This document shows positions 2,136 to 27,102 of a stretch of 64,000 bases of DNA, one piece after another. The notes under the pieces are model-generated. The model made no database searches and was not told the origin of the DNA. It was given only the letters and a program-made list of their open reading frames with translations. This stretch comes from Escherichia coli O157:H7 str. 2011EL-2287 (lineage in GTDB: Bacteria; Pseudomonadota; Gammaproteobacteria; Enterobacterales; Enterobacteriaceae), in the NCBI GenBank assembly GCA_000614405.2, contig GCA_000614405.2_3612.1, one strand, 5' to 3'. Made by a program: the position numbers and the translations under genes. Each line of letters begins with the position of its first letter. Position 1 is the stretch's first letter.

Positions 2136-4565
2136 ATGAGCATGTGGTCGTTCGACTTTGAGTCATCCGGTTTGCTGGAAGACCCAGATCTTTATTATCA
2201 CTGCGGCCTGTTTAAAGAGCTGAATAAGAACCGTTTTATGCTGTTCCTTCCTCTAAATGACCGCACACACTACTCCGAGGAGGATATAGAAAAGGCTAAG
2301 AACTTCATTCTGGCAAAGAAAACTCTTTATAAAGATTTTGAAGTTCGCATAGCAGATTTTTCAGAGTTGGAAGGTTGGCTTACAGGAAATTCTGACTGGT
2401 CACCAACAGCTTTGAACTGCCATAACTGCTACAGTTATGACTTTATGCTGATGGAAAGATTATCTGGTATTCATTTTGATATGTTCCGTGATCCTAAATG
2501 TATGGGGACTATCAACGATCACCAGGTTAACCTGTTTGATACGTTGGCGATGAGCCGAATCTTGTGGCCTGATCGCCCTTTACCAAAAGGTTGTCCGGAC
2601 TCTGTATTCAACCCGGTTACTAAGAAAATGCAGCCTGTTGGTCCTCACGGCCTTATGGCATGGGGCTACGCCCTTGGTAACCAGAAAGTTCAAATTGATG
2701 ACTGGCGCGATCTTCCGTTATGGAAGTATGTGGATCGTGTATTTGAGGACGTTATCATCCAGGAGCTGCTCTGGAAAGAGCTGGTAGCGGAATCAAAAGG
2801 TGTATTCTACGGCAAATCTGACATGCAGAACTTTATGTACGATCCTGCCAAAGAGAAGCCGAAAGGGTTCAAGAAGATCACCTGGAAGAACGCATTACGT
2901 CGAGGCATGTTGCAGCACTTCCTGATGGAGCTGCAGGCCCGTCAGGGTGTATACTTCGACATAGATGGAGCTATTGCTTTACGTGACCGTTGCGATGCGT
3001 GGATGAAAGAAATCGCTGATCGTGTTGAACCACAACTGCCTTTAAAAGAGCTGTTAATGTCTCAGCGGCCCAAGTTCCCTGAAAAGCCGTTTAACCAAGA
3101 TGGGACAATCTCTAATAATGGTTGGAAATGGTTAAAAGATAAGCTTGGCTATCCTGTGGACATGAGTGCTTTAGAGTTCAAAGCCCCACCTAAGCGAGCA
3201 TTTACCTCTACAGGAGATGTCAGTAAGATGGGGATAAAATGGTGTGAAGAGATGGGCTGCAAAGACCACGATAAGATGGCTGATTTCTTGAGAGGCTATA
3301 TTAAGGGCACCTCCACACCACAACCTTTACCTAAAGAGCTGATGGATCAGGCAATAAGCGATCTGCAGCAGAAGCGAATGCCTGACTGCAAGATACCTAT
3401 GAAAATCAGCAATCAGGACGATATTAAGCGATACCTGATCAGTGCTGGTTGGCTTCCGACAATGTGGAGAACTAAGGATGTAACTAAAGACAGCAAGAAG
3501 AAAGCTTTACCTGATGCAGATGTTGATGCACGAGTATATGCATATATGGACGAGCTTTTGGAGTCAGAGTATTGTGACCTAATTATCAACTTCTGGAACA
3601 AAACTGATGCTAAGTTCCAGACAACCGTGCACAAGTTCCGAAGCTTTCCTAACTCCGAAAGGATTAAAAAGGAAGTATTCGGGAAAATACGTAGAAAAGC
3701 TAGGGCACTTATTACTTCTCCGCAACTGAAAGATACGTTTGGACACCTGTGTCCGAATCTTGAAAAATTGAACGGAGAGATGGCTAAAGATATCGTCTTA
3801 TGGTTATCATTGCGAAACCGCAGATCGGTCCTTGATCCACTCAAGGAGGATAAGGTTGACACTGGTCTTCTTAATCACCCACGCTTGAAGATTGACCATA
3901 AGCTTCCTGCTAAAAGTTCTGGGCTAACAAACACTTCCAGACAGAAACACAGTATTTGTGCAAACATGCCTAAACCATCTCCTAAAGTGGTTATGGGTAA
4001 AGAGATGCGTAGTCTATGGGGTGTTCCTCCGGGATACTTTGAGATCGGTATTGACGGGTCCAACTTAGAGCAGCTTATCGGAGCTTGGGGTGCCTTTGAG
4101 TTCGACAACGGCTTGTATTATGATGTTGTAAGTAACGGGGACGCACACCAAAACAATGCTGAGGCATATACAAAAGTAGCAGGTAGAGAGGTGTCTCGTA
4201 ACGACGGTAAACCTATCACGTATGGGGTTATGTACGGGGCACAAAAAGATAAAGTTGCAGACATGCTGGATATCTCTCCAGAGTTGGGACAAAGGGTAAT
4301 CGATGCACTCTGGGATGCCAACCCTGGTCTTAAGGGGCGCAAAGAGGATCTGGAGAAATTCTGGGAAGCAACAGGTAAGAAGTTTATCTACTCTTTTGAT
4401 GGTCATGCTATCTGGACCCGATCTAAACACTCTTTACTTAATGCATACCAACAGAATGGTGGTGCATCGCTGTGTGACTTAGTTGGGATACTCATGCACC
4501 ACCAAATGGTGAAGCGTGGGTGGTACGATGAAGGTGTTCGTCGTATTATTTATTACCATAAATAA
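2136..4565 (+). CDS. DNA polymerase, family A, exon 1 (3'-5' exonuclease domain plus polymerase motifs A and B); ORF as read stops 2 codons into an intron, true exon end about 4559
   Basis: Exo I FDFESSG; motif A IGIDGSNLEQL; motif B RNDGKPITYGVMYG; ends ...RRIIYYH exactly at the His of motif C (HDE); SD AAGGAG upstream. Confidence 0.88.
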   Translation: MSMWSFDFESSGLLEDPDLYYHCGLFKELNKNRFMLFLPLNDRTHYSEEDIEKAKNFILAKKTLYKDFEVRIADFSELEGWLTGNSDWSPTALNCHNCYSYDFMLMERLSGIHFDMFRDPKCMGTINDHQVNLFDTLAMSRILWPDRPLPKGCPDSVFNPVTKKMQPVGPHGLMAWGYALGNQKVQIDDWRDLPLWKYVDRVFEDVIIQELLWKELVAESKGVFYGKSDMQNFMYDPAKEKPKGFKKITWKNALRRGMLQHFLMELQARQGVYFDIDGAIALRDRCDAWMKEIADRVEPQLPLKELLMSQRPKFPEKPFNQDGTISNNGWKWLKDKLGYPVDMSALEFKAPPKRAFTSTGDVSKMGIKWCEEMGCKDHDKMADFLRGYIKGTSTPQPLPKELMDQAISDLQQKRMPDCKIPMKISNQDDIKRYLISAGWLPTMWRTKDVTKDSKKKALPDADVDARVYAYMDELLESEYCDLIINFWNKTDAKFQTTVHKFRSFPNSERIKKEVFGKIRRKARALITSPQLKDTFGHLCPNLEKLNGEMAKDIVLWLSLRNRRSVLDPLKEDKVDTGLLNHPRLKIDHKLPAKSSGLTNTSRQKHSICANMPKPSPKVVMGKEMRSLWGVPPGYFEIGIDGSNLEQLIGAWGAFEFDNGLYYDVVSNGDAHQNNAEAYTKVAGREVSRNDGKPITYGVMYGAQKDKVADMLDISPELGQRVIDALWDANPGLKGRKEDLEKFWEATGKKFIYSFDGHAIWTRSKHSLLNAYQQNGGASLCDLVGILMHHQMVKRGWYDEGVRRIIYYHK

Positions 4566-4835
4566 CATTGTGGCTTCATAGAGTAATCTATGTCGAATAA
4601 CCTCTTTAACTGCGGGAAGCCTAAACCTTATGGCAAGGTAATCCGCAACGAAGCGCTCAAAAGAGCGAACGCTCAGAGGCCATTCCGAAAGGAAGTAGAC
4701 CAGCAAGTGCGGTCGAAATGGGAGGATTCCTGTGGTTGCTTATCATAGGAATATGAGATGGTCCGATCCTACGTGAAAACGTATGGCTATGCACGTAATG
4801 GTGCGGGGTAGCTTAACGACCTACCTGAACTATTG
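4560..4835 (+). ncRNA. putative group I self-splicing intron (no homing endonuclease ORF) interrupting the DNA polymerase gene
   Basis: 276-nt gap between pol exons; preceded by U, ends in G; contains AACUGCGGGAAG and AAUCCGCAAC resembling group I P/Q core elements; flanking exons restore YYH-DEY (motif C). Confidence 0.6.
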
Positions 4836-5189
4836 GATGAGTACCAACTTCAGGTCCCTGACACACCTAAGTATAAGACTGTGTACACCTTCGACACAAT
4901 TGAAGAACTGGAAGCATTTAAGGCAGAGCAGGAAGCCAAACTTCATGTGTTCGACGGTCATAAGTACAAAAAGGCACGCAAGGATGAAAACGGAAACGAG
5001 GTGGTTGACAGAGACGGAAACACGGTGTACGATCCTATCCTGAACGATGACGGAAAGCTTGAACTTATCTGGAGCCCTGTGGGCGAGATGGTGGTACATT
5101 GCTTCTGGCAAGCTTCTAAAATGATGGGAGTCCCGTTCCAGATCACAGGTGAATACTTGTGTGGTCGTAACTGGGGTGATTGTCACTAA
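4836..5189 (+). CDS. DNA polymerase, family A, exon 2 (motif C Asp-Glu onward to C-terminus)
   Basis: In-frame continuation DEYQL...; C-terminus GRNWGDCH matches Pol I/T7 gp5 GxNW..H terminal motif. Confidence 0.75.
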   Translation, partial: DEYQLQVPDTPKYKTVYTFDTIEELEAFKAEQEAKLHVFDGHKYKKARKDENGNEVVDRDGNTVYDPILNDDGKLELIWSPVGEMVVHCFWQASKMMGVPFQITGEYLCGRNWGDCH

Positions 5190-6987: not shown

Positions 6988-7376
6988 TGAAAAATATTTG
7001 GGATATTGATATCTTTGAAGCCTCTAAGCTTGACGGTGCTGATGGAGTGATTATGGTGTCTGATGGCAAGGCAACACTAACTTCCGGAGATATCATCTAT
7101 GCCTTGGACGAGCTGGCGCTTCTGAAGTCTACCGGTAACACTCTAGAGGAGCGTCTTCAAGGCTTCGCCTTCAAAGAAGGCACAAATACCGCCATGATGT
7201 GCACCACACGGACAGTTCAGGTGGGTAACGGTGTCTATATGATCATTGCTGTGTGTCCTAAATTCAGCAACGTCAACAAAGATGATACTGACGCTGTCAA
7301 CGATGTGGTTGTTCTCTTCGTTGGTGACGCTATGGCAGATCTGATGAATGCAGGAGAGGCAGCAAATGAAGACTGA
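6987..7376 (+). CDS. hypothetical protein
   Basis: ORF, coupled start. Confidence 0.5.
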   Translation: MKNIWDIDIFEASKLDGADGVIMVSDGKATLTSGDIIYALDELALLKSTGNTLEERLQGFAFKEGTNTAMMCTTRTVQVGNGVYMIIAVCPKFSNVNKDDTDAVNDVVVLFVGDAMADLMNAGEAANED

Positions 7377-8380: not shown

Positions 8381-9606
8381 TGAGCGTTATTCAACAATTC
8401 GCTAACCCAATGAATCCGCGTGAAACTGTTTTACTAGCTCACGGCATGATTAAACGTGTTAGCATCAAGCCTATTAAAGGTGCTGATCCTACAACAGGTA
8501 TTAAAACCACTGTGTGGCAAGGTAAGAAAATTGAATCCAGCCACACCATCTCTTTACTGATTTCTGAACTGGATTCCTCTGATAACCTGCTTCAAGGTGG
8601 TGAAGAAGTCTGGATCAGCATGGGTGATAAGCTGCTTAAACCCGGTCATCAAGACTCTGTCTCTGTTAAGATTGATGACAAGTGGGAAACCGTAACGCCA
8701 GGATGGATCGTAAATATCCCTTTGAAGGCAAACGAGCATAACGGTAAGACCTATTACAAGGGCTCACTGGCTAAGATGGTTAAGCTGGGTGCAGGAGAGG
8801 CTCCAGCAGCGACTCAGCAGCAAAAACAGCAACAAGGTGCACAATCACAAGGCCAGAAGCAGAAACCTCAGCAGAATGCCAATCAGGACGTTTTACGCAT
8901 CTATGGTGATGTGACTCAGATTGTTGGCAACGTGGTTACTGTTAATGACCACAAGATTGGCGAAGGTGCTATGGTTGTAACTGATGAGCAGCTTAAAGAC
9001 CTGGTGGTAGGTGGTCGTGTTGCAGCCATTGTTGACAAAGACACCGGAAACATTATCAGTGGTTTCAAGGCCTATCCTCCTAAGGCAGAGAACGGCACTC
9101 AAGGATCTGGTGGCAAGCGTAAATCCTCTTACGACCCTATCGGTGTGGAAACGGGGCATAGCATCAATGCGTTGCAGATCATCCTGGATCGCGGGTTTAA
9201 GGTAGACGACCCACTGGGCGTGGCTAAAACACTGCACGTAGTCACCATTGAGCTTAAGAAAGAGTATGCTCAAGCCACCAACCGAACTGAAGATGAAGTA
9301 GGTGCCAGTGTCGGTAATGCGGTGTTGAACGCTTGTCGCCGTATTGACAAGAAAACGAAAGTTGATGATTTTGCAGCGGCAATTACTGCAGAAGCAAAAG
9401 ATGTCTTGACTAATCTGGCTGAACCGTTGTACGATTGGATCAAGAACGGTGCTGGGTCAACCGACCATCAAGAACCTCAGGCTGCCAAACAGGAAGCAGC
9501 TCCACAGCAAAACACTGTAGACGCTCCTCCTGTAAATGATGCGGAAGATGACCCAATGGATCAGAATCCAGCACAGTACGCCTTTGATGATGACATCCCT
9601 TTTTAA
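8380..9606 (+). CDS. ssb: single-stranded DNA-binding protein (SSB-like) with Gln-rich linker
   Basis: 408-aa ORF ending AFDDDIPF, the hallmark acidic C-terminal tail of bacterial-type SSB. Confidence 0.7.
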   Translation: MSVIQQFANPMNPRETVLLAHGMIKRVSIKPIKGADPTTGIKTTVWQGKKIESSHTISLLISELDSSDNLLQGGEEVWISMGDKLLKPGHQDSVSVKIDDKWETVTPGWIVNIPLKANEHNGKTYYKGSLAKMVKLGAGEAPAATQQQKQQQGAQSQGQKQKPQQNANQDVLRIYGDVTQIVGNVVTVNDHKIGEGAMVVTDEQLKDLVVGGRVAAIVDKDTGNIISGFKAYPPKAENGTQGSGGKRKSSYDPIGVETGHSINALQIILDRGFKVDDPLGVAKTLHVVTIELKKEYAQATNRTEDEVGASVGNAVLNACRRIDKKTKVDDFAAAITAEAKDVLTNLAEPLYDWIKNGAGSTDHQEPQAAKQEAAPQQNTVDAPPVNDAEDDPMDQNPAQYAFDDDIPF

Positions 9607-23373: not shown

Positions 23374-23637
23374 ATGAAACGTCTGGATCAGCTTAAACTA
23401 GTTCAGTACATGGCCTACAAAGTTCTTGAAGTCCAAAAAGGTAGCAAAAAAGAGGTTTGCGAGAAAGCTTATAAGATCTTTACCCGCAAAAAAGATGACT
23501 GGATGCTACGCCAGACCAAAAAGGCTGACATCTTGGGGTACCTGGAAGAAGAGATCCGCCTTGAAGAGCAAGAAGAGATCCGCCGCAGTGAAGCAGATTA
23601 TCAGGCAGCCTGGGAAAACTGGATGAATAACAAATAA
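23374..23637 (+). CDS. hypothetical protein
   Basis: ORF with SD AAAGAGGAAA. Confidence 0.5.
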   Translation: MKRLDQLKLVQYMAYKVLEVQKGSKKEVCEKAYKIFTRKKDDWMLRQTKKADILGYLEEEIRLEEQEEIRRSEADYQAAWENWMNNK

Positions 23638-23782: not shown

Positions 23783-24202
23783 ATGAACATTAAATCTAAT
23801 AATCCGGCATATAGCTTTGATAACGCTTTTTGTCACGGTCCGGCGGCGAAAGGATTCGAAATCGATGGTAAACTAATTATTGTCAATGTTGACGGGGAAG
23901 AGGTTGCAGTATATCCGGTGGCAGACGTAAAAAGCCGTTTACAATGCCGCATTGATGTTACCGCCTATCAGCTTGATCCGGTCCGCATAGTTGCCCTGGT
24001 CCTGGAAGAAGAAATTAAAGCCATGCACCATAGCAACAGGTTTATTGGTGACGCTCAGGATAATATGAAGGTGTGCCGCCATAAAGTTAATGAAGTGCTT
24101 AAAGAGTACGGCTATAAAGATCTTATGATCAAACGTGATGAAAAATTCCGGTACCGTAACGACCTGGCAAATCGGATTTTTGAAATATACGAATCATTAT
24201 AA
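23783..24202 (+). CDS. hypothetical protein
   Basis: ORF with SD AAGAGG; upstream TTGACA-N17-TATATT promoter. Confidence 0.55.
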   Translation: MNIKSNNPAYSFDNAFCHGPAAKGFEIDGKLIIVNVDGEEVAVYPVADVKSRLQCRIDVTAYQLDPVRIVALVLEEEIKAMHHSNRFIGDAQDNMKVCRHKVNEVLKEYGYKDLMIKRDEKFRYRNDLANRIFEIYESL

Positions 24203-24220
24203 TTTTTTAACTGAATTATC

Positions 24221-24246
24221 AAGGGGCTTAGGCCCCTTTCTTTTTG
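24221..24246 (+). terminator. rho-independent terminator ending the plus-strand gene array
   Basis: AGGGGC-TTAG-GCCCCT hairpin followed by TTCTTTTTG. Confidence 0.7.
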
Positions 24247-25156
24247 TCTGATCTTCCCCCTACCATAAACGGCCCTACCTGGCAAGTGGAATAATTGACG
24301 AGCCATCAACCCCACACACTGTACAAATATACATGGAAAATAACTATTGCATAATTTTTCATTGTGTGGTAGCAAGTCCATTTTTACCCGTTTTCTCTCC
24401 CAAAAGTGCACGTAATGCCGCTATTGCACAAATTTTAACCTGATGCACATCTCCAATATCTTGTCAACAACTAAAAATCTTTATAAGTCATACACTTACA
24501 CAGCATCGAAAGCGTGTTCTACGCGAAAAATCGAGTATAACTATAGCCGCCAGATCTCAGAATTCACGTACGCACGCCATTCTATAGCCTGCAAAGTATT
24601 TATTCCAACCACAGAATAACGGAATAGTCAATACCTGCATAAAATAATTATTCGTGTAAACTGCATAACATAAATCAGCTCAGGTGTCAACATTTTTCGT
24701 AAACAGTCCGAAATTATCACGATGAGTTATCATAAACAGAGAAATCTTTAGTCGTCTAATGTTTACTGTACATTACTATATTGACTGGAATCATTAGATG
24801 ACTAATAGAAAGATAAGAAATAATTAACAATACAATTATTTTATCTGTAACAATAAGGCAACTATGCAAACGAATGGCATGGCGCGACGGAGTCGCGACA
24901 TAATATAAAAGCAGTAACCATCACCCCCGTGATAGTTTGTCTGCAATCTATTAATCAGATCATAGTTGCCTTGTATTTAGTTAATCATGACATAACAAGC
25001 AAGGCAACTATAGATCTGCTAATAGTTGCCCTGCTTTTATATTATGTCATAGAAACACCCGAAGGGGTGACCAAAGGTCACCTGGCATAGCCAGTGAAAT
25101 ATTGTAAACAAGTTAATTATTGTCATGCAAACGAATGGCATGGCTTATCATCTCTG

Positions 25157-25350
25157 TGTAAACAGTTTGTTTGTAAACAGTTTATACGTGAACAGTTAAC
25201 TATGTAAACTATTGAGAATGTAAACAGTAAAGGAAGTGAATAGTAAGCGAGTGAATATTAATAGCGTGAATAGTGACAGCGTAAACAGTCAGGCATGTCA
25301 ATTAAGTCTAAAGTGTCAAAGGTGTCATATTATGTCACCATTATGTCAGA
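25157..25350. repeat. array of short degenerate tandem direct repeats (GTAAACAGT / GTGAATAGT units, then TGTCA units)
   Basis: About 9 units of GT(A/G)AA(C/T)AGT at 12-17 bp spacing, then about 6 TGTCA repeats; no coding potential. Confidence 0.6.
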
Positions 25351-25609
25351 CAAGTTTTTCTCCTCTTTGTCAAGTGCTGCATGAAAATTTACAATCTGGT
25401 ATGGTAGCATTTTTGCGGCCCTGTTTACATTCAGTTGTGTATGTATAAGCCTTGTTGTGTGGGCGTTTAGACGTCTAGACGGTTGGAAGTCTACAGGTCA
25501 ATATCTAATCTATTGGTTGCTAACTATATCCCACACAAATAGTAAGAAATATAATTGTTATGTGTGTAAACTGTAACTCATGTTATCAATCCCTGTATGG
25601 ATCGCCAGT

Positions 25610-25637
25610 GGTGCGCATAATGGGTATTATGTTAAAT
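25610..25637 (+). other. dif: dif-like XerC/XerD site-specific recombination site
   Basis: GGTGCGCATAA-TGGGTA-TTATGTTAAAT: both 11-bp arms identical to E. coli dif as recalled, 2 differences in the 6-bp central region. Confidence 0.7.
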
Positions 25638-26765
25638 TGCCCGTAATGATAACAGTTCTCACAATGATAGGTATTCTCATTCACCCCACAAGATAGGTTG
25701 CAAATGTTGTGCCACTGTGTGAACGGCCTCACCTATTAATTTGCCTCACTGCCTCGATATTTGAGAATTATTATAAGAATGAGAAGTATTCCCATTCCGT
25801 CCGCCTGGCAGCACTCCTGTCGGTCAGGTCAAAATCGTGGTAGAATTGGGCCTATTCAGATATTTCTGGCTGACTCTTCAGGTCTGTGTGGGAAAAGCCA
25901 ACCTCTCCGGCGGGGCAGGGGGAGGTCAATTAAAAAATTTACGTGGTGTATGAAGCGCTCTTCAGGTAAGGCAGGTATTATGGGATGAAACCCTCTTCAG
26001 GCAATGATATTTGTGGGTGTGATATTTGCTGGAAAGCCAGATATGACGGGACTCCCGGCGGGGCAGGGGTAGTACAGACAGGGAAAATATGGGGATGTAG
26101 TTGGGTGAATTGATCGGGCAGGTAGAGTATGGAATATGTTACAAGTATGTTAAATATGGAGGTTGAATATCTGTAGGATTTGTGTGTAAAATCAAAGACT
26201 TAAGGGGTGTTGTGGTATTTTCTATAAATAATTCAAGTTTAATAGGCAATATTTGTCTCTATCCGCTTTGTGTGGTAAACAGATTCAGATTAGATTGGTT
26301 TACAAGTGTATACATAATATACAAATTAAAGATACAAGAAACCCCCCTCCCCCCTTCGGCTACCATTCACCTTTTCCTCTGACTGGTACTTAAACACTTA
26401 TTCAGACTCTTCAGGTTATCACCCATATATCATATGGCAGTGACTGGTGTCCTCCGGCCCCTCTTTCGTCACCCGTCCGCTTCGCCATGCTAATGCCATA
26501 GCTAATGGTTCGGTTGTTCACCCTGTTCACTCAGGTGTATCTCTATACCCCTTCAAACCGAAGAGAACAGAAAACCCGAATTACTCGGTAAAAGAAAAGA
26601 GAAGAACTTAATTTTATCAGGATAGGCAAGAATGTCAAGGCATGACTGCTCACTAAACAAGCAAACAGTCATGTGTGGGAGGTAAGTGATTGTGGTGGTA
26701 GGAAATTTAGTTGAAAGATGTGTTATAGGTGCTTCCAGCACTTTAGCCGGGCAGCTAATTGTGTG

Positions 26766-26981
26766 TCAGTCCAGCGGTTCATCCTCTACTTCACTGAAAT
26801 CAATGTTCATGGTCTCTTCCCAACCATCGATCTCAGCACAAGAGTGGAGTTCTTTAGGGTTTACTCCCAAAGCCTCAGCAACAGAGTCTATATTTAACAC
26901 CTCTGGCAGGTATGATTCATCGAATTCAAGGTAAATCAGGCCACGAGTGTTGTCAGCTCCACCAAATATTTCTATCTTCAT
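26766..26981 (-). CDS. hypothetical acidic protein
   Basis: ORF; last gene of the minus-strand transcription unit. Confidence 0.5.
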   Translation of the reverse strand: MKIEIFGGADNTRGLIYLEFDESYLPEVLNIDSVAEALGVNPKELHSCAEIDGWEETMNIDFSEVEDEPLD

Positions 26982-27102
26982 AAAATCTCCTCTGGGAATG
27001 AAAGTGTGAACAGGGTTTTATACGTTCTAATGCACAGGAATTATACACGTTTGCCTCTTCAGGCCATGCTTTAGCATGAGGAACCTGTGTGGGCTCGGTG
27101 CT

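Follow-up and report, generated by a model that had tools for sequence, protein, structure and literature searches.

The DNA analysed here is a 64,000-nt window from the assembly of Escherichia coli O157:H7 str. 2011EL-2287 (GCA_000614405.2, contig GCA_000614405.2_3612.1). It belongs to a Vequintavirus, an rV5-like coliphage, and contains a gene-free, repeat-dense interval of about 2.5 kb that is the subject of this work. The interval is located between a plus-strand open reading frame (ORF) ending at position 24202 and a minus-strand ORF ending at 26766. No ORF longer than 75 aa is present from 24203 to 26765, in agreement with an earlier note on the window which had seen no ORF with a credible SD in this place. 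Plus-strand genes lie on the left and minus-strand genes on the right, making the interval the point where transcription converges, as also stated in the note, and the cumulative GC skew of the window turns over at the same position. The repeats, the palindromes and the dif-like site that the note had listed were all found again. To these, the present analysis adds an array of GT[AG]AA[CT]AG motifs with a 15-bp period, a run of TGTCA repeats ending at 25348 and a near-invariant block at 26320-26610.

Matches to the interval, at 88-97% identity, were obtained in 122 phage records, every one of them from a vequintavirus (about 137 kb), and the gene-free state is kept across these records. Annotators call between 0 and 9 small ORFs in it, none exceeding 130 aa, with the choice differing from one record to another. 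The earlier note would have taken intact genes in homologous genomes as a sign of decay in this one; most records annotate none or very few genes, and the small ORFs are inconsistent, which means that this check did not refute the note's reading. The only real gene found inside the interval in any relative is an inserted HNH homing endonuclease. Since blastn detected no DNA homology to the interval outside the genus, more distant comparisons were based on architecture and on three phages: L004, a divergent relative of 140.6 kb from IMG/VR, Av-05 (L034) and Erwinia phage Hena1. In rV5, the counterpart of the interval spans 103,979-106,620, between ORF163 and ORF164. The paper describing that genome (2013) drew it as a grey box "labeled non-coding" that "contained no ORFs" and assigned it no function; its authors saw the change in GC skew and expected bidirectional terminators between genes 163 and 164, but did not find them. 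More recently, a 2025 preprint on transposon-insertion sequencing of the vequintavirus Bas54 described an intergenic region of about 2 kb devoid of insertions, whose role was left open. Gene numbering and layout indicate that this is very probably the same interval.

Conservation was measured on 17 vequintaviruses aligned with MAFFT (L004 and a further contig, L006, were left out as not alignable). Overall, the interval shows much the same degree of conservation as the genes on either side, with a variable, indel-rich zone at 25000-25400. This conservation, the near-invariant parts and the missing insertions in Bas54 point to functional importance. Hidden protein genes were considered by clustering ORFs of at least 35 aa across the 17 genomes. 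Where genomes have small ORFs in common, the underlying DNA is itself highly conserved, and only one ORF occurs in all 17. This ORF lies inside the near-invariant block, where indels of 2, 1, 5 and 1 nt relative to L004 break every frame. These findings, along with the disagreement among annotators, led us to reject hidden genes.

A 457-bp direct terminal repeat (DTR) occupies the middle of the interval (25349-25805), its left end reading 5'-GACAAGTTTTTCTCC and its right end ...CATTCCGTCCGCC-3'. The repeat was delimited with the help of close relatives. In EdH4, which is 93.6-96% identical to the window across the interval, the first 459 nt equal the last 459 nt exactly and map to window positions 25805-25349. 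With the segment as query, the records of YN3, Gotham, Pr121LW and four bov phages were found to start exactly with it. The segment is present twice in YN3 and in Gotham, the latter record annotating it as a repeat_region. Beyond EdH4, these records amount to at least four independent submissions beginning at the coordinates of the repeat. In a survey, a 458-bp terminal redundancy was reported for two vequintaviruses whose contigs were linearised where most sequences stopped abruptly (Korf 2019). Klebsiella phage KPP-1, from the same subfamily, has a 514-bp DTR with doubled coverage, and PhageTerm assigned it T7-type packaging. These data support one of the options raised in the earlier note, namely a genome terminus or packaging site: the DTR and both cut sites, as placed from relatives with determined ends, fall inside the interval. 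Probably, then, the virion DNA of the window phage starts at 25349 and, taking the long way round, ends at 25805; the DTR is the stretch of 457 bp that separates these two positions.

The boundaries coincide with those of a phage from a different genus. Hena1 carries an annotated 519-bp "direct terminal repeat 1" and has no BLAST-detectable DNA in common with the window except the dif site. When the two were aligned (alignments A3 and A4), the Hena1 boundaries fell in the same columns as the EdH4-derived ones, in DNA that is otherwise unalignable. The motifs common to both (with the slash marking the cut) are TG(Y)(Y)A / RACA...TTTTCT...TGTCAAGT on the left and ...CGTCCG(Y)C / T(R)(R)CAG on the right. 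Just inside the left end, 14-46 nt from it, stands an element beginning CTCTTTGTCAAG (25363-25395, plus strand) that has no variable column among the 17 vequintaviruses. A scan scored it as sigma-70-like (TTGTCA-17-TACAAT). Its TGTCAAG is kept in L004 and Hena1; the -10 hexamer is not, and for this reason the segment is more likely to be an end-recognition element than a promoter. Elsewhere in the DTR are a palindrome, CGTTTAGACGTCTAGACG (25464-25481), replaced by an unrelated 24-nt palindrome at the same relative position in L004, and three boxes of the ATGATA(A/G) type (25644-25700, plus strand) directly to the right of the dif site, at about the place where the navn record annotates a 36-nt repeat_region. 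The DTR region of another Escherichia phage, I29 (L009), is tandemly duplicated, 1052 bp matching the 457-bp query, with copies of dif at 4360-4387 and 4954-4981, 594 bp apart. The duplication could be either real or an assembly artefact of the terminal repeat.

The dif-like XerC/XerD site lies within the DTR at 25610-25637 (plus strand), at a distance of 261 nt from the left end of the repeat and of 168 nt from its right end. It reads GGTGCGCATAA-TGGGTA-TTATGTTAAAT and thus has the architecture of the dif family (an 11-bp XerC arm, a centre of 6-8 bp and an 11-bp XerD arm). The pattern GGTGCGCATAA-N6-TTATGTTAAAT is matched without mismatch and was not met in 100 shuffles. All 22 arm positions are identical to those of dif in E. 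coli UTI89 (GGTGCGCATAA-TGTATA-TTATGTTAAAT); in the 6-bp centre, 2 of the 6 positions depart from the host sequence. A 40-mer of the phage matches 5419 of 5426 complete E. coli genomes, typically at one place each (median 1, highest 2). In vequintaviruses the arms are kept at 16 of 16 loci, one of which has a single mismatch, and the centre is TGGGTA or TAGGTA. Scanning IMG/VR for exact arms returned 50 loci. The host centre TGTATA is present at 36 of these, about half of which have one recurring host-type flank, and all sites on contigs of more than 120 kb have a centre other than the host's: TGGGTA in Vequintavirus, GGTGTA in Hena1 (at both contig ends), CGTGTA in Av-05, GACATA in a 155-kb contig and TGTGTA in a 262-kb contig. 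The site is found in the terminal repeat of at least three genera (Vequintavirus, Henunavirus and Avunavirus), always with the XerC arm toward the left end and at a comparable offset from it (261 nt in the window, 288 nt in Hena1, 209 nt in Av-05). It is this recurrence across genera with otherwise unalignable terminal repeats that makes the case for selection, and we regard both the existence of the site and its selection as solid. The UTI89 match extends beyond the core: within window positions 25605-25644, 4 of the 5 nt on the left and 6 of the 7 nt on the right also agree with the dif region of UTI89. Hena1 and Av-05 lack such flanks. This resemblance is a hint that the site of the vequintaviruses was taken from an E. 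coli chromosome or had at some time undergone exchange with one. No link of Xer or dif to Vequintavirinae or to terminal repeats was found in the literature, and the presence of dif in the vequintavirus terminal repeat does not seem to have been reported.

The DNA on either side of the DTR is organised in an orderly fashion. On the left, the plus-strand gene arm is closed by an intrinsic terminator (AAGGGGCTTAGGCCCCTT followed by a T-run, 24221-24238, plus strand), annotated at the homologous place in Murica and EdH4 and represented by a different hairpin and T-run in L004. It is followed by a first conserved island (24441-24550, plus strand), unique DNA adjoining the right genome end, which still aligns with L004. 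The island holds a promoter-like sequence, TTGTCA-N15-TATAAG (about 24461-24488), that was read from the sequence and points to the junction; it may function as a promoter, its 15-nt spacer lying outside the range of the consensus scan. Next comes an inverted-repeat module (24864-25144) bounded by identical 20-nt direct repeats, ATGCAAACGAATGGCATGGC, at 24864-24883 and 25125-25144. Inside are a perfect 18-nt inverted repeat (24897-24914 / 25031-25048) and, within it, a hairpin whose loop is CCCCC (24916-24937); four copies of AAGGCAACTAT alternate in orientation (24855, 24961, 25000 and 25022), and the palindromes CGCGACGGAGTCGCG and GGTGACCAAAGGTCACC are found at about 24884 and 25066. An iteron-like array (25158-25290, plus strand) follows, with about nine units of GTAAACAG, GTGAACAG or GTGAATAG in a 15-bp period. 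The underlying motif, GT[AG]AA[CT]AG, is 18-fold enriched: 11 of its 16 copies in the window are in the interval, 0.6 being expected, and 8 of them form one phased array. Standing to the left of the DTR and matched by inverted copies to the right, this array is more prone to indels among vequintaviruses than any other part of the interval. Five TGTCA repeats (25296-25348, plus strand) then lead up to the left cut, the last ending at 25348. In L004, GTATGCCT is repeated four times in the same position.

Outside the right cut lies a set of sub-terminal repeats (25874-26110, plus strand) made up of CTCTTCAGG at 25874, 25958 and 25993, two copies of CCGGCGGGGCAGGGG (25907 and 26055) and the conserved motif TGATATTTGTG. 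The window contains seven copies of CTCTTCAGG against 0.5 expected, all on the plus strand; five are clustered within 25874-27063 (the additional ones at 26407 and 27055) and the other two are inside coding genes. The top strand is G-rich and C-poor from 25900 to 26300 (plus strand; GC skew +0.36 to +0.56). Further right, the near-invariant block (26320-26610, minus strand) shows 0-4 variable columns in each 20-nt bin, most bins having 0-1, and includes two inverted iteron copies (GTGAACAG GGTGAACAA, minus strand) and a hairpin with a U-tract at 26588-26576. Just beyond it is a sigma-70 promoter with an extended -10 (26611-26638, minus strand; TTGACA-16-TGaTAAAAT), matching the consensus at 11 of 12 positions plus the TG and pointing to the left genome end.

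DNA similarity between L004 and the window is confined to three islands (24441-24550, 25985-26083 and 26509-26622), yet the parts follow each other in the same order. A terminator is followed by identical 20-mers bracketing a perfect inverted repeat and a C-loop hairpin (L004 has bounding repeats of its own, ATGCAACGATAACATGGCGC, near 7099 and 7341), arrays that reach the left cut, the end motif, the palindrome, a host-factor site, the right-cut motif, CTCTTCAGG repeats with a G-rich stretch, and the minus-strand promoter. A perfect inverted repeat of 17-22 nt, with its arms 82-204 nt apart, precedes the left cut in all four phages compared, each time with a different arm sequence: GACATAATATAAAAGCAG in the window, GACATAATAACGCTGAG in L004, GACACAATAACGCAGTAG in Av-05 and AGCCACCTATAAACGCTGATAG in Hena1. 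Pairing is thus kept while the arms change, a covariation that is the signature of a functional hairpin or cruciform. Repeats of the CTTCAG type follow the right cut in all four phages, in lineage-specific versions. The HNH homing-endonuclease gene mentioned above is at 8776-9486 (plus strand) of L004 (Pfam HNH_3, E = 1e-18). It is inserted between the G-rich repeats and the counterpart of the block that is invariant in vequintaviruses, a point at which about 750 bp are tolerated.

Taken together, these features suggest that the interval is the junction at which, in the concatemer or circle, both ends of a linear and non-permuted phage genome come together, and that it is equipped with T7-type packaging signals and with a site for joining or resolution by XerCD. 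We would give this interpretation a probability of roughly 0.7. The virion DNA would start at 25349 and end at 25805, carrying the 457 bp at both ends as the short DTR typical of T7-type packaging. Both gene arms are transcribed outward to the ends, which is why the junction looks gene-free and "convergent" in a circular or concatemeric map. The flanking unique DNA would act in cis as the apparatus by which the junction is recognised, cut at TGYYA/RACA on the left and at CGTCCGYC/TRRCAG on the right, and provided with a regenerated second copy of the repeat. In such a scheme, the arrays abutting each cut are candidate terminase-recognition boxes, and the long perfect inverted repeat, which precedes the left cut by a few hundred bp, is a candidate hairpin primer for repeat duplication, as proposed for T7.

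As dif is inside the DTR, every injected genome has two directly repeated copies of it. Host XerCD could join the two, giving a circle without the help of RecA and releasing a fragment of the length of the repeat, and could later resolve multimers. Identical centres are provided by any phage-phage pair (the DTR copies being identical by definition) and not by a pairing with host dif, whose centre is TGTATA; the private centre would accordingly permit exchange between phage sites while hindering recombination with the chromosome. This cyclisation or resolution function is plausible, although we rate it at somewhat less than an even chance.

Most elements of this arrangement have parallels elsewhere. 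In T7, arrays of short repeats lie beside a 160-bp terminal repeat that has been proposed to be duplicated through a hairpin intermediate. The window phage resembles T7 in having a short exact DTR (457-519 bp here and in relatives as against 160 bp) with fixed cut sites, short-repeat arrays directly adjoining the repeat at either side, an inverted repeat located ahead of the junction in unique DNA, and promoters reading toward the junction. It differs in being a 137-kb myovirus with promoters for the host RNA polymerase and both terminal gene arms directed outward; moreover, its non-coding zone is far larger (about 2.5 kb) and carries a host recombinase site, and no sequence similarity to T7 was seen. 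The nearest analogue described in a large phage is that of T5, a phage with two-step DNA injection whose terminal repeats contain an injection-stop region and untranslated regions with more than 1 kb of gene-free DNA, nested and inverted repeats, palindromes, a nine-copy direct repeat and eight DnaA boxes; in some members of the T5 group an HNH endonuclease gene is inserted between the repeat blocks. A non-coding block dense in repeats and palindromes, located at the terminal repeat and conserved in order, is common to T5 and the vequintaviruses, and L004 has both DnaA boxes and an HNH insertion. On the other hand, the T5 repeat is about 10 kb long and contains the pre-early genes, as opposed to the 457 bp here that are free of genes and of DnaA boxes, and the description of the T5 region makes no mention of Xer.

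For the recombination site, the closest precedents are those of other replicons. These sites share with the phage site the 11-bp XerC and XerD arms around a 6-bp centre, and non-chromosomal replicons carrying cer or psi also borrow XerCD. The phage site is distinguished from dif, cer and psi by its non-host centre and by its carrier, a virulent phage that has it in the terminal repeat; an accessory region such as those of cer and psi was not identified here, no search having been aimed at one. In bacteriophage P1, Cre acting at loxP cyclises the DNA; P1 is temperate, is packaged by the headful and encodes its own recombinase. The Cre/loxP system of P1 also resolves dimers. Like P1, the window phage has a recombination site in terminally repeated DNA, in direct copies from which a circle is predicted to form without homologous recombination. 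Only some P1 particles carry loxP twice, whereas with a fixed DTR every particle would carry dif twice, and the recombinase would be borrowed from the host. Finally, the integrative elements exploiting Xer (IMEX), such as CTXphi, VGJphi and TLCphi, are phage-borne cases of dif-like sites at which differences in the centre control productive strand exchange. IMEX sites usually have one degenerate arm and the arms are both perfect here; the genome is about 20 times the size of a typical IMEX, and integrated copies were not found in 5426 E. coli and 185,579 species-representative genomes.

Several points weigh against the interpretation just given. The ends of the window phage are deduced from relatives that are 93-97% identical, and circular permutation or headful packaging has been published for rV5, the bov phages and BpE1AUH. 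The assignment of the repeat arrays and the inverted repeat to terminase recognition and repeat regeneration is drawn by analogy with T7. Within vequintaviruses the dif 28-mer is not exceptional (12% of the 28-nt windows in the interval vary as little), and dif is not present in L004. XerCD recombination at the dif core normally requires septal FtsK for activation of XerD, and no phage-encoded Xer activator or FtsK-gamma domain was found by Pfam in the adjacent ORFs. Nor are circles or monomers obviously useful to a phage that packages from concatemers. The Bas54 result itself may be partly technical, as the text is silent on whether the selectable anti-CRISPR gene had a promoter of its own.

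Two features that might have been related to FtsK were discarded. An 87-aa protein encoded at 23374-23637 (plus strand) is labelled 'DNA translocase FtsK' in navn, nimi and B9-1; considered as an Xer activator, it was rejected for having neither FtsK-gamma nor any significant Pfam domain, and the label looks like annotation drift. FtsK-orienting polar sequences (KOPS) could guide a translocase toward dif. The window contains eight copies of GGGNAGGG where 4.2 are expected, the two nearest to dif point away from it, and the numbers are too few to infer guidance. Within 750 bp of dif the copies are at 25913-25920 (plus strand), 26061-26068 (plus strand) and 26345-26352 (minus strand).

The position held by dif in the window is taken in other phages by binding sites for a different host protein. 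L004 has three perfect DnaA boxes, TGTGGATAACT, at +271 to +302, that is, at the offset of dif in the window. In the 155-kb contig (L025), five DnaA boxes at +183 to +233 precede a dif site at +275, and the 262-kb contig (L033) has DnaA boxes on either side of two dif-like sites, in a module that is internal. These two metagenomic contigs are from the same sample and have no match in the phage collection. They have a module in common (1-600 of the former, 900-1700 of the latter) consisting of several perfect DnaA boxes (TGTGGATAACTTTTGCGAG), a dif site whose arms are both perfect and, about 100-120 nt beyond it, a second, degenerate dif-like site; the 262-kb contig has in addition an inverted partial dif copy between the sites and further DnaA boxes beyond them. 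In the window phage the DTR is free of DnaA-consensus boxes, and the interval as a whole has a single weak one. That perfect arms with non-host centres recur in several genera, and that DnaA boxes turn up in this slot as well, suggests that the terminal repeats of large phages follow a general design rule. We offer, tentatively, the idea that large virulent phages keep a slot in the terminal repeat, about 200-300 bp from the left end, for host proteins of chromosome maintenance, with XerCD used as a borrowed Cre/lox that circularises the genome without RecA and keeps it monomeric. If true, this would explain the transposon-intolerant region as well as the persistence of Vequintavirinae without lysogeny or plasmid genes.

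That persistence is documented independently. Vequintavirinae make up the largest cluster (N = 68) of the 'persistent virulent phages' recorded in assemblies of E. coli isolates, a set in which no plasmid replication or partition genes were found. In addition, PLSDB lists a complete vequintavirus genome (CP057073.1, L074) as a circular, non-mobilizable 137,565-bp 'plasmid', pRHB39-C03_2, from an E. coli isolate of cattle origin. In this record the DTR is present once and the junction region is internal. A role of dif in maintaining monomers would fit both the persistence and the circular 'plasmid' record. Partition and incompatibility, also proposed in the earlier note, fared less well: the six ORFs nearby that were scanned against Pfam gave no Par or Rep signature, and the phage is a virulent one.

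The repeat-dense region is in itself of a known kind, a DTR junction resembling those of T5 and T7; what is new is the host XerCD site with its private centre. Recognising the junction ties together the "non-coding" box of rV5 (2013), the 458-bp terminal redundancy given in one sentence of a 2019 survey and the insertion-free region of about 2 kb (2025). Identification of the genome ends also corrects the common description as 'circularly permuted' of phages that are therapeutic candidates, with consequences for how their genomes are oriented, compared and engineered, and indicates to phage engineers which DNA to leave undisturbed. Should XerCD indeed act at the site, a virulent tailed phage would be using the chromosome-dimer machinery that was previously tied to plasmids and to small integrating filamentous and other non-tailed phages. 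This would provide a testable mechanism for RecA-independent circularisation and might explain the carrier-state persistence, among whose cases Vequintavirinae are over-represented.

The alternative that survives best is compatible with the termini as placed here. It holds that the interval is, or contains, an iteron-type replication origin in which an initiator of the phage or the host binds the 15-bp array and opens AT-rich DNA, priming being due to DnaA, to a promoter R-loop on the G-rich stretch, or to both. Features reminiscent of RK2 oriV and P1 oriR are the phased direct repeats, the AT-rich DNA with its GC-rich flank, and the DnaA boxes of relatives: the GC content falls to 0.31-0.35 at 24600-24999, beside the array of eight phased copies whose inverted counterparts lie across the DTR; L004 and the 155-kb contig have perfect DnaA boxes, three to five in number, at the corresponding offset; and the G-rich top strand at 25900-26300 would favour stable RNA-DNA hybrids. 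The oriC-like set of DnaA boxes in the T5 untranslated region and the lack of insertions in the transposon screen can be read in the same sense. Against these stand the scarcity of DnaA boxes in the window phage itself, the absence of an initiator gene (or any Rep-like Pfam domain) among the six neighbouring ORFs scanned, and the fact that a 15-bp period is short for iterons in an array that is variable and in the least conserved, most indel-prone part of the interval. The polarity of the GC skew is of the terminus type, though it tracks the direction of transcription, and similar arrays by the terminal repeats of T7 and T5 are reportedly not the primary origin. An origin here is therefore possible, but on balance we consider it unlikely.

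More doubtful still is the proposal that the interval owes its importance to one or more essential non-coding RNAs (ncRNAs), the structured kind of which had been suggested in the earlier note. The clearest candidate would be a short RNA, CU-rich at its 5' end, starting about 7 nt past the -10 of the minus-strand promoter (near 26604, minus strand) and stopping at the hairpin and U-tract (26588-26576), or a longer read-through product that crosses the near-invariant block. Some observations favour such an RNA. The promoter occupies the same alignment columns in L004, where it has a better -10 (TTGCAA-17-TGcTATAAT). Downstream of it comes a CU-rich leader and then the hairpin, whose stem is CCGA/TCGG in the window and CCAGAA/TTCTGG in L004, pairing being kept through a compensatory change and followed by a U-rich run. 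Some 290 nt past the promoter are nearly invariant in the 17 phages, and the frame-breaking indels in L004 speak against a protein product. The idea of a large structured RNA was given up, as a 307-nt minus-strand candidate folds no better than shuffled sequences (z = -0.99). The covariance-model scan proposed in the note gave no support either: at the gathering threshold, Rfam 15 recognised solely a group I intron elsewhere in the window, and a permissive scan of the interval returned two chance-level matches (E about 5). Invariance of the block leaves no covariation to test, no transcript data were found, and BLAST revealed no counterpart in Av-05 or Hena1. Furthermore, the invariant block also contains repeats of the kind bound by proteins, and constraint at the DNA level explains its conservation equally well.

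A third alternative follows the published descriptions of packaging. The genome would be circularly permuted and packaged by the headful, the interval would serve as a bidirectional termination or anti-collision buffer, and the ends of the records would reflect an assembly convention. Besides the description of rV5 as circularly permuted and the PhageTerm calls of permutation or headful packaging for the bov phages and BpE1AUH, the strong terminator at 24221-24238 and the terminator-like hairpins of the minus strand would suit such a buffer, as would the C-rich, G-poor composition of the minus strand over 25900-26300, expected of a Rho-utilisation site. However, submissions from different groups independently start or end at the same two nucleotides, which is why the reports of permutation were given less weight, and later versions of the bov records begin exactly at the DTR. 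The Hena1 boundaries coincide with these across genera, and a buffer fails to explain the covarying perfect inverted repeats, the fixed offset of dif or the intolerance to insertions. We consider this alternative improbable. Least probable of all is that dif serves as an attachment site through which XerCD integrates the phage at host dif in the manner of IMEX, maintaining a hidden lysogeny-like state: perfect arms, the UTI89-like flanks (which hint at past chromosomal exchange) and the frequency of Vequintavirinae in isolate assemblies are in its favour, but no vequintavirus DNA occurs in the 5426 complete E. coli genomes, the phage-side junction (XerD arm plus phage flank) is absent from the 185,579 species-representative genomes, the single isolate-borne copy is a separate circular replicon, the centre varies between phages and differs from the host's at two of six positions in the window, and known IMEX are reportedly small.

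A few additional observations were made in and around the interval. No Chi sites are present in it. Nineteen of the matching records are named 'Campylobacter phage' (MG0656xx); these are vequintavirus sequences, 92-97% identical to the window phage, and the labels probably result from mislabelling or contamination. The last gene before the junction (23783-24202, plus strand) encodes a protein of 139 aa with no Pfam domain. It is absent from FV3, nimi and EdH4, with the consequence that the non-coding zone of these phages begins one gene earlier; a homologue of the protein is also encoded by L006, a 153-kb contig with a differing downstream layout. Finally, the group I catalytic intron detected by Rfam (RF00028, 64.7 bits, E = 4e-14) is at 4550-4785 (plus strand), within the plus-strand gene arm. 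The rV5 paper mentions introns solely in the terminase gene. By its coordinates that gene should map outside the window, and the intron seen here may mark a second intron-bearing gene.

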